Source of the DNA: Escherichia coli
GTDB taxonomy: Bacteria; Pseudomonadota; Gammaproteobacteria; Enterobacterales; Enterobacteriaceae
Length of the DNA: 64,000 nucleotides
NCBI RefSeq assembly: GCF_030013205.1
Contig: NZ_CP122648.1
Strand: one strand, 5' to 3'
Below, piece by piece: positions 15,001 through 18,000 of the stretch. Position 1 is the stretch's first letter. Each line of letters starts with the position of its first letter. The position numbers are program-made.

Positions 15001-18000
15001 GAATTTCCCGGCTGGAGCATCAACTCGCCGCCGAGAAAAAGACTGACTATTCCACGTTCCCGGAGATCTAATTATGGATCTATTGATCGTTTTAACTTAC
15101 GTGGCGCTGGCGTGGGCGGTCTTTAAAATCTTCCGCATTCCGGTAAATCAGTGGACGCTGGCGACGGCGGCGCTGGGAGGCGTGTTTCTGGTGAGTGGTT
15201 TGATTTTGTTGATGAACTACAATCACCCTTACACTTTTACCGCGCAAAAGGCAGTGATAGCGATCCCCATCACGCCACAGGTGACGGGAATTGTTACTGA
15301 AGTCACTGACAAAAATAATCAGCTTATTCAAAAGGGCGAGGTGCTTTTTAAACTCGACCCGGTCCGTTACCAGGCGCGAGTTGACAGACTTCAGGCTGAC
15401 CTGATGACGGCGACGCATAATATAAAGACGCTGCGCGCGCAGCTCACTGAAGCGCAGGCCAACACCACCCAGGTTTCAGCGGAGCGCGACCGTCTGTTTA
15501 AAAATTATCAACGTTACCTGAAAGGCAGCCAGGCGGCGGTGAATCCGTTCTCGGAACGTGACATCGACGATGCGCGGCAAAATTTCCTCGCGCAGGATGC
15601 GCTGGTGAAAGGCTCGGTGGCGGAGCAGGCGCAGATCCAGAGCCAGCTCGACAGTATGGTTAACGGCGAGCAGTCGCAGATTGTGAGCTTAAGAGCGCAA
15701 CTTACTGAAGCAAAATATAACCTTGAGCAGACTGTCATTCGCGCGCCGAGCAATGGCTACGTTACTCAGGTACTGATCCGCCCAGGTACATACGCAGCTG
15801 CCTTGCCGTTGCGTCCGGTGATGGTTTTCATCCCCGAGCAAAAACGGCAAATTGTCGCCCAATTTCGGCAAAACTCGCTGTTACGTCTGAAACCCGGCGA
15901 TGATGCGGAAGTGGTGTTTAACGCGCTACCTGGGCAGGTGTTCCACGGCAAACTGACTAGCATTTTACCTGTCGTGCCAGGCGGTTCTTATCAGGCGCAG
16001 GGGGTATTGCAATCATTAACGGTCGTGCCCGGCACGGACGGTGTGCTGGGAACCATTGAACTGGACCCTAACGATGATATCGATGCCTTACCCGACGGCA
16101 TCTACGCCCAGGTGGCGGTTTACTCCGACCATTTCAGCCATGTTTCGGTGATGCGGAAAGTGCTGCTAAGAATGACCAGCTGGATGCATTATCTTTATTT
16201 GGATCATTGAGGGGGGCGGGGGAGATTATGGAACTTTGCTCCCTGCAAGGACTAATTATTTTTGCATATTATTTCATCGGCTGTGATGATTTTTCGTTAA
16301 TATCCATTATGTTAAGAAGTTCGGGATGAGTGTGAACTCATTGGATTTTTTATCCGTCTTGATCTGCCGAAGGATCAGACTATACATTGTCGAGATCGCA
16401 ATGATGATATGAGTTGTTCCTCTGCCACGGCTCTAATCAAAAAAGAGCAGGAGTGCTTTTCCATCTATTGCGATGATGGCTTTATTATCTGAAGGATGAC
16501 AGTCACATTTAAAAATATTTAATTTATAGATCACAATGTAGGTTCATGTAATATATGTATACAACTATTTTTCTCTTCACTTTTAATTATCGTATTCATT
16601 ATAACACTAAGTTAAAAAAACTCCTGGAGAGTGAGTTATTAATATGTTTTTAAATATAATTAAGTTATTATTCATCGATGCATTTTATAGAATCATCAAT
16701 GGCTACAATAGTACTATTAACTCTCCAATTTATATTTTTATTATCATTGCAAATATTAACTGAATCTATATCAATGATTTTTTTATTTTTATCTTTTATT
16801 TTGTTTACAGTTTCAATGCAATCAGCGACAAGTTGGTGTGGATTTAGATTCTTCAGATATGGTCTTATGATCTTTCCCTTGCTTAATAAATAGCATGTAT
16901 AGGATTCGGAAAGTCCAGCATCTATTTTGTACATCATTATTCTAGATAAGGATGTGAGAAATGCCTTGTTATCATTAGCAGCCATATATGCCAGTCCGAG
17001 TTCAGCCTCTGCGGCTTTACATGAAAAATAGCTAAGTGAACACGCTTTTCGTCCCTCTTGGGTACTGGCTGATATTAGTGCCCATAATATTGCCTTGTCT
17101 GCCAAATCCAACTCTCTCTGAAATTGGTTTACAGTAACTGCATTCGCAGAAATAGAGAAGAAAAGCACAATTGTTAATAACCTTGTCATATTTCTAGTCC
17201 GTCACTGTTAATGTGCTATCTGGCTCTGAAAATATTAGCTCATTTAATTTTTGCATGTCATTAGATGAACCAGTTATACAACCCTCGGAACAGAATCGAG
17301 GTCCTAAAGATGGACCAAAAGCGTTTAAACAACTATGTGTTAAAAATCCATCACGATTATACGTTTCTGTATTTGCTGACGGTACTAAACGTATACCATT
17401 AGGTTTTCTATTGGTTGCTCCAGGACTGTTAAGCAAGCCTCGTCCGGTTTGCTTCATTGAGTTCTCCACTTTAGACTATTGGACTATCTTTCAACATGGC
17501 ATCGCCTTAGTATACCGCTGGTTTTCCGCTCATTGTTAATTTTCTCTTTCGTTCATTTCACTTAATTTTCAGTTTTTTCCAAAAGTCAATATTCCCTTCT
17601 AATAAAATTTTTTCTATGGAATCTTCATTAATTTTATTATTAGAGCATATGACATTATCTTGAACGCCATATGACACCACCCCGTTTTTATCAATATAAT
17701 ATCTGTCTTTACCATCAATAATATAAATCCTAACATTTTTATCATCAAAATGGTAACACTCATTACTAGACCTGTTCAGTAACATTAATAACTTCTCACG
17801 ATTTATCTGTAATAATTTTTGTGCACCATCTTTTATTGCAAAATTTTCAATTTTACTTTTAGTGACAGGGGAATATGTTTGGATGCGAAAAGGCATCCTA
17901 TAATGGAAAACATCAGCTATACAGCAAGATGAAAAAAATACGGAAATAAAATACAGACATACTTTCATACCATCTCCTAAACTGGTGATATATTAAAAAC

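Follow-up and report, generated by a model that had tools for sequence, protein, structure and literature searches.

The two small genes behind the rhs gene in this 64,000-nucleotide stretch of Escherichia coli DNA (assembly GCF_030013205.1, contig NZ_CP122648.1; the window) are very probably the relic of a previous rhsA toxin tip, consisting of a truncated Tlde1 stub and an intact imm57 immunity gene left in place by tip replacement. The pair is ordinary, imm57 is already annotated and K-12 has the same pair as yibW/yibV. The families and their pairing are already described, as are the locus and the way in which such orphans form. The locus serves as a clean illustration of Rhs evolution by tip replacement and otherwise offers little beyond bookkeeping.

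Layout of the rhsA locus

A sequence-only reading of the window had pointed to two small ORFs of 91 and 173 amino acids, 4 bp apart, in AT-rich DNA directly after the rhs locus. This description is exact, with both ORFs on the minus strand. According to the raw sequence and the ORF list, the 91-aa ORF occupies 17469..17194 with a GTG start and the 173-aa ORF 17189..16668 with an ATG start; the 4-nt gap reads AAAT. GC content is 0.24-0.39 over 16300-18300, against 0.60-0.68 in the Rhs core and ~0.53 in yibH. On the same strand, 5' of both ORFs, lie a 1376-aa PAAR-Rhs gene and then a 136-aa ORF, which gives the minus-strand gene order rhs, 136-aa ORF, toxin stub, imm57; yibH, yibI and mtlADR follow on the 3' side. 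In CFSAN061763, which is 100% identical to the window here, the locus is flanked by yibF and yibH. These neighbours identify it as the rhsA locus. Its features are:

22156..18026, minus strand: PAAR-Rhs gene, 1376 aa (NCBIfam RHS_core and Rhs_assc_core)
~18415-18029, minus strand: current Rhs tip, after DPLGL, with a HEMGH metallopeptidase motif (weak Peptidase_M91 match, E 1.5e-3)
17968..17558, minus strand: 136-aa ORF, presumed immunity gene of the current Rhs tip
17433..17557, minus strand: spacer between the 136-aa gene and the toxin remnant
17433..17469, minus strand: junction-derived 5' end of the 91-aa ORF (no intact-tip homology above 17432)
17194..17432, minus strand: remnant of a Tlde1/DUF2778 L,D-peptidase Rhs tip, C-terminal 78 codons and stop
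16668..17189, minus strand: imm57 gene, intact, 173 aa, signal peptide in codons 1-17 (Pfam, RefSeq)
16298..16506, minus strand: degenerate fragment of an ISAs1 (H-repeat) transposase, at the Rhs element's distal end; counterpart of K-12 yibU

The two ORFs are not chance open frames, because the Imm57 gene and stub residues 14-91 are 99% identical in DNA to annotated genes of strain ECONIH1. NCBIfam and PADLOC returned no match for either of them, and Rfam found no RNA family on either strand of 16100-18200. The 136-aa ORF has no Pfam, NCBIfam or PADLOC match and belongs to no described family; its homologs occur in E. coli and E. albertii only, in the latter at the end of another Rhs array. 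As to the origin of the spacer (17433-17557), the sole lead is that it contains a segment agreeing with the opening 19 nt of the rhs gene (ATGAGCGGAAAACC...) at 18 of 19 positions. A source in the E. albertii homolog of the 136-aa ORF was rejected, since that homology ends at ~17552, just past the stop codon. The ISAs1 fragment resembles an ISAs1 pseudogene of ECONIH1 with 52-58% amino acid identity and stops by tblastn, and 76.6% identity by blastn.

The toxin remnant and its parent family

Sequence comparison indicates that the 91-aa ORF is a chimera, with codons 1-13 from junction DNA and residues 14-91 from an Rhs tip. The latter are the last 78 of ~145 tip residues and, except for S15 in place of Gly, equal the C-terminus of an annotated 135-aa 'tlde1 domain-containing protein' of ECONIH1; DNA identity to that gene is 98-99% from window position 17432 onward. 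Of the two possibilities that the sequence-only reading had allowed, an unrelated small protein and a displaced tip without its 5' end, the latter is supported: in other E. coli the intact tip is fused to full-length Rhs at the same locus. Homology to the old tip begins abruptly at 17432, with only a TTAA microhomology upstream. The ORF has no DPxGL core remnant, as had been noted, and the interval 17433-17557 holds neither DPxGL nor core homology, both of which are present in ECONIH1 and K-12.

The parent family was defined from an alignment of 23 tips from E. coli, from named Ralstonia, Paraburkholderia and Rhizobacter records and from metagenomes. Its members have a DPxGLA boundary and the invariant motifs ASGNN, CKNN, GPIPxGxW, HSC, NAFGP and CSEGC; among ASGNN, CKNN, GPIPxGxW, HSC and CSEGC, the stub retains HSC and CSEGC only. 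A complete tip behind a DPLGL boundary is found in a partial public protein (P0002) and in a 267-aa orphan (P0017). Protein searches for a full-length Rhs with a Tlde1-type tip returned fragments of at most 267 aa, which may reflect the clustering of Rhs proteins by their common core; full-length genes were recovered with a chimeric core-plus-tip DNA query.

Tlde1 proteins are type VI secretion (T6SS) effectors that have been shown experimentally to act as L,D-carboxypeptidases/transpeptidases on periplasmic peptidoglycan, with His and Cys required (bioRxiv 10.1101/2020.02.18.954545; PMC9638812). The best match to Pfam PF10908 in the tip family has E ~2e-7. The AlphaFold2 model of the intact tip has a pLDDT of 84.5, and the 25 best PDB matches by Foldseek are without exception peptidoglycan enzymes of the YkuD fold, nearly all of them annotated as L,D-transpeptidases; matches include DpaA, Bd1075, LdtMt2 and Pgp2, and structures 8ikr, 7o21 and 3vyo. 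When the PDB was searched by sequence with the intact tip, both singly and in the form of an 18-sequence profile, there were chance matches only, and Tlde1a was not among them. Since the solved Tlde1a structure was missed in this way, the link from tip to Tlde1 rests on Pfam and the predicted fold.

The window ORF itself gives a weak, partial match to Tlde1_dom (PF10908; E 1.3e-3, model positions 66-107 of 120) and does not reach the whole-domain Tlde1/DUF2778 profile match of its intact relatives (to E 2.2e-7). The catalytic residues are kept: H45 (17337-17335) corresponds in the alignment to H107, and C64 (17280-17278, in S61-E62-G63-C64) to C126, both of which are invariant in the tip family; C126 is the [S/T]xGC cysteine. 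Missing are 15 of the 34 invariant tip-family positions and four of the eight β-strands of the intact-tip model (E10-14, E19-23, E35-42 and E69-74), so that the fragment does not make up a complete L,D-transpeptidase (YkuD-like) fold. With half of the modelled strands gone the stub almost certainly cannot fold, and it cannot be delivered because it has neither Rhs shell nor PAAR. It is very probably inert.

A GGAG (17467-17464) stands 6 nt before an in-frame ATG (17457-17455), which is a more likely start than the GTG at 17469-17467 and would give a product of 87 aa. Synthesis of such a product from the junction GGAG-ATG is conceivable from the sequence, and an 87-aa protein starting MKQTGRG is called in some public annotations (P0001); RefSeq leaves the stub unannotated in window-type genomes. 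The stub is a pseudogene fragment that came by chance to lie in frame behind a new GGAG-ATG.

Imm57 and its pairing with Tlde1-type tips

By its sequence, the 173-aa protein is a full-length and ordinary member of the Imm57 family. Its match to Pfam PF15596 has E 2e-44 and a score of 150.2 and spans model positions 2-100 of 100; the identical RefSeq protein, WP_000197506.1, is entered as 'Imm57 family immunity protein'. Taken with the partial Tlde1_dom match of the stub, these family searches support the possible orphan toxin/immunity module proposed in the sequence-only reading, here made up of Imm57 and the C-terminal 78 residues of a Tlde1-type Rhs tip. Neither ORF proved to be a housekeeping gene, and the 173-aa protein has no match to a periplasmic enzyme. 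Zhang et al. 2012 assigned Imm57 to Tox-LD-peptidase toxins as an immunity family and described it as mostly α-helical with conserved D, SE and C positions (PMC3482391). The window protein shares with that family a full-length match, a predicted α-helical fold, the D/SE/C positions and a Tox-LD-peptidase neighbour, and no difference was found.

Among 1.84 billion cluster representatives, searched exhaustively, there are 177 Imm57 relatives, with a typical length of 175-185 aa. In a 50-member alignment six cysteines are 92-100% conserved, D90 and C99 are invariant and E95, within an LSESY motif, is nearly so. The AlphaFold2 model (pLDDT 94) is all-α with seven helices. Compared with solved structures by Foldseek it gave no significant match (best E 0.26), and a sequence search of the PDB gave chance matches only. 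No published neutralisation test for any Imm57 member was found in the literature.

The N-terminus of the window protein (MTRLLTIVLFFSISANA, followed by VTV) can be read as a Sec signal peptide, with an n-region, a hydrophobic core and an A-x-A cleavage motif; cleavage is predicted after ANA. This agrees with the signal-peptide-like start noted in the sequence-only reading, and all 50 aligned family members have a hydrophobic, signal-like N-terminus. Together with the conserved cysteines, this would fit an exported, disulfide-bonded protein.

The pairing of Imm57 with Tlde1-type tips was examined through distant Imm57 homologs (32-50% identity) on metagenomic contigs, by scoring the gene directly upstream of each with the tip-family profile. 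On three of four contigs an Rhs core with a Tlde1-type tip directly precedes the Imm57 gene (hmmsearch E 1e-44 to 1e-73), one of the three bearing two tandem tip/Imm57 cassettes; the fourth has Imm57 as an orphan, within an immunity array that follows a different Rhs tip. The order of Tlde1-type tip and then Imm57 is found in the window, with its 4-nt gap, and in L003, L006, L008, L009 and L011. Rhs-DUF2778 fusions are mentioned in the Tlde1 study (bioRxiv 10.1101/2020.02.18.954545). The window pair occupies the position of an orphan module, 3' of the main rhs gene and its immunity gene, with the cognate immunity gene next to the old tip.

How imm57 might be expressed was considered in a promoter and terminator scan. 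The scan gave 10 promoter-like sites against 10.7 expected from shuffles, with none convincing upstream of imm57. The minus strand between the rhs gene and imm57 has no terminator-like site. As promoter signals are at chance level and nothing resembling a terminator intervenes, read-through from the rhsA operon is the simplest inference and the most likely route of imm57 transcription.

Strain variation, proposed tip replacement and competing explanations

Strain Ec73552 holds what is presumed to be the ancestral state at the rhsA locus: yibF, a full-length 1392-aa PAAR-Rhs-Tlde1 gene, Imm57 and yibH. Over residues 1-1247 its Rhs shares 95% identity with that of the window, and the two Imm57 proteins are 98.3% identical in amino acids. 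ECONIH1 has at the same position an Rhs core fragment, the annotated 135-aa tlde1-domain protein and Imm57, which together form a complete orphan. The tip has been displaced by newer tips into the orphan position in ECONIH1, 6409 and K-12. The sequence-only reading had noted that K-12 carries orphan tip and immunity genes at this place, and the window pair is indeed orthologous to yibW/yibV. In MG1655 yibS is a core fragment, yibW a tip pseudogene, yibV a 'PF15596 family protein' and yibU an H-repeat fragment. The series yibS-yibW-yibV-yibU (b4650, b4651, b4615, b4652) has the same locus, order and orientation beside yibH as the window; yibW is the Tlde1 tip remnant, yibV is Imm57 and yibU is the H-repeat fragment, and the DNA is 92-93% identical from window position 17424 onward. 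The two differ in what has been lost. K-12 keeps the core fragment yibS and a longer, frameshifted tip, whereas the window keeps only the C-terminal half of the tip and no core fragment. In K-12, imm57 has lost 1 nt in codon 9 and is frameshifted a second time, which leaves a 111-aa signal-less internal fragment, YibV, whereas the window Imm57 is intact.

The module is polymorphic in presence and absence among E. coli genomes. It is found in some form (at least 80% of it) in 3651 of 5426 complete E. coli genomes, and the Imm57 gene is missing from about a third. The exact window-type arrangement occurs in 180 of the 5426, all at ≥99% identity. A common divergent allele of 92% identity accounts for 3374 genomes (62% of complete E. 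coli genomes), and imm57 is frameshifted in all five of these that were examined (K-12, BL21(DE3), O157:H7, PE164 and E105) by a 1-nt deletion that produces a T7 run in codon 9, which RefSeq flags as a frameshift. In the allele class of ≥95% identity, all four genomes examined (window type, ECONIH1, Ec73552 and 6409) have an intact imm57. Comparison of the two E. coli alleles gives a dN/dS of 0.29 in imm57 and 0.21 in the tip remnant, which indicates that both were under purifying selection through most of the allele divergence. PE164 has an intact Rhs-Tlde1 beside its frameshifted imm57, and in E105 rhs and imm57 are both broken. Slippage at the T7 run as a rescue of frameshifted imm57 was set aside as unsupported, given that E105 has both genes broken and K-12 a second frameshift. 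Because imm57 is frameshifted in every examined genome of a class that makes up 62% of the total, selection to retain it looks weak, and its intactness in the window may only reflect recent origin.

We propose that the ancestor carried a PAAR-Rhs protein with a tip of the Tlde1 L,D-carboxypeptidase/transpeptidase family, an enzyme that would damage peptidoglycan in the periplasm of target cells, followed by the cognate periplasmic immunity gene imm57. A new tip resembling an HExxH metallopeptidase would later have recombined in with its own 136-aa immunity gene. The left crossover would have fallen in the conserved Rhs core, and the right junction would be illegitimate, in the middle of the old tip at window position 17432. 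The abrupt start of homology there, with no more than TTAA shared, argues that the replacement removed DPxGL at the core boundary together with the N-terminal half of the tip (the first ~67 of ~145 residues); it would have left imm57 untouched. Imm57, if expressed, would be exported by the Sec pathway, oxidised to three disulfides and able to bind incoming Tlde1 tips. It may thus still protect the window strain against E. coli that continue to fire Rhs-Tlde1.

This account can be set against the view that the whole module is inert debris, stub and imm57 alike being unexpressed and imm57 intact only through recent replacement. We consider this somewhat unlikely. All 180 window-type copies are ≥99% identical, which leaves little time for decay, and the lost frames in the five examined copies of the common allele, the doubly broken E105 and a promoter signal no higher than chance all point the same way. 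Against it stand the four intact reading frames of the ≥95% allele class, the existence in the same species of strains armed with the cognate toxin, which makes a benefit plausible, and the lack of a terminator-like site between the upstream operon and imm57. A further proposal is that Imm57 is an active shield against Rhs-Tlde1 E. coli and that the 87-aa ORF has been kept open since its translation drives imm57 by translational coupling; this combination seems to us quite unlikely.

A function for the 87/91-aa ORF itself, whose translation would begin at the new GGAG-ATG and yield a leader that couples imm57 translation or a small protein with residual activity, is very unlikely, even though several features would suit it: the spacing of GGAG and ATG at 17457, the 4-nt gap to the imm57 start, the retained catalytic His and Cys, the gene call in some annotations and the analogy with internally expressed orphan Rhs toxins of Salmonella that behave as toxin-antitoxin modules (PMC7043789). 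The loss of 15 invariant positions and four strands, the want of a signal peptide for a periplasmic substrate and the absence of a RefSeq annotation count against it, and an open frame may mean simply that the fragment is young. That the 173-aa protein could instead be a periplasmic housekeeping or other non-immunity protein, next to a toxin fragment by coincidence, is hardly credible. No Imm57 member has been characterised experimentally and the predicted fold has no significant solved match. However, roughly a third of E. coli genomes lack the gene, which is also broken in the five examined copies of the most common allele, sits in AT-rich accessory DNA and recurs directly 3' of Tlde1-type Rhs tips on unrelated contigs. 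A relic of tip replacement is therefore the reading that we retain.

Comparison with characterised systems places this relic more closely. The parental tip matches the same Pfam family as Tlde1 of Salmonella Typhimurium (DUF2778, PF10908), with a predicted L,D-transpeptidase fold and the His...[S/T]xGC motif (bioRxiv 10.1101/2020.02.18.954545), and like Tlde1 with Tldi1 it has an adjacent immunity partner with a signal peptide. Salmonella Tlde1, however, stands alone, whereas the parental tip was fused to Rhs, has diverged so far that sequence searches do not match it to the solved Tlde1a, and survives in the window as half of the domain. The partners also differ: Tldi1, a validated immunity protein, is of the DUF2195 family, and the window partner is an all-α Imm57. 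In the orphan rhs-CT/immunity modules exemplified by Salmonella rhs-orphan (PMC7043789), as in the window, a former tip and its immunity gene are displaced 3' of the current pair and the immunity gene is kept. Classical modules of this kind keep a core stretch for recombining back into the main gene; in the window copy that stretch is gone, as is half of the toxin, and for this reason the copy cannot be re-armed.

One species thus holds the armed ancestor, complete orphans, the half-deleted orphan of the window and fully decayed copies such as that of K-12, and an immunity gene can outlast the loss of its toxin in a strain. If Imm57 were shown to work, this would be the first experimental proof that a Tlde1-type enzyme is neutralised by a member of this family, for whose predicted fold there is no counterpart among solved structures. 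In window-type genomes the stub could be labelled a tlde1-domain pseudogene fragment.

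Current Rhs tip and the gene behind it

The tip now carried by the main PAAR-Rhs gene and the gene presumed to confer immunity to it lie next to each other in the window.

18026-18415, minus strand: current Rhs tip, with an HEMGH motif and a Peptidase_M91 match
17558-17968, minus strand: presumed immunity gene, encoding a 136-aa protein

The Peptidase_M91 match is weak (E 1.5e-3), and the 136-aa protein received no family assignment in Pfam, NCBIfam or PADLOC. Homologs of this protein were found only in E. coli and E. albertii, where a copy with 67% identity closes a different Rhs array. 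The current tip and its presumed immunity gene are less well characterised than the orphan Tlde1/Imm57 pair, the remnant of an L,D-peptidase tip and its paired immunity family.

Spacer and distal end of the Rhs element

Two further segments flank the orphan.

17433-17557, minus strand: spacer of about 125 nt separating the 136-aa gene from the toxin stub, the 91-aa ORF that retains the end of a Tlde1 tip
16298-16506, minus strand: degenerate ISAs1 (H-repeat) transposase fragment, identified by amino acid comparison with the ISAs1 pseudogene of E. coli ECONIH1

The spacer contains ATGAGCGGAAAACCAGCGG, identical at 18 of 19 positions to the opening 19 nt of the rhs gene (22156-22138, MSGKPA...). 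Over the next 13 bases there are 7 mismatches, every one a transition. The spacer may be what is left of the 5' end of a further PAAR-rhs gene, brought in with the new tip cassette. The ISAs1 fragment, which contains stops and shares 52-58% amino acid identity with the ECONIH1 pseudogene, is the distal boundary of the Rhs element; its K-12 counterpart is yibU.

Tlde1 and Imm57 in other genomes

A 1-nt deletion leaves a T7 run at codon 9 of imm57 in all five genomes examined for the common E. coli allele (L010, which is strain PE164, L002, L004, L005 and L017). In E105 both the Rhs-Tlde1 gene and imm57 are broken. In PE164 the frameshifted gene lies directly 3' of an apparently intact, full-length Rhs-Tlde1 gene.

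L010 (E. coli PE164), 2333-7037: Rhs-Tlde1 gene and frameshifted imm57

PE164 would hence hold an armed toxin without annotated immunity. Slippage at the T run, a T6SS that is not active, or plain decay may account for the shared frameshift and the PE164 state.

Tandem cassettes occur on a JGI metagenome contig.

L008 (Ga0466704_121729), 707-2290: two tandem Tlde1-tip/Imm57 cassettes

The first comprises a full Rhs tip followed by Imm57, the second a 117-aa orphan tip followed by a further Imm57 that is divergent. Displacement of the same kind thus acts on the Tlde1-tip family outside E. coli as well.
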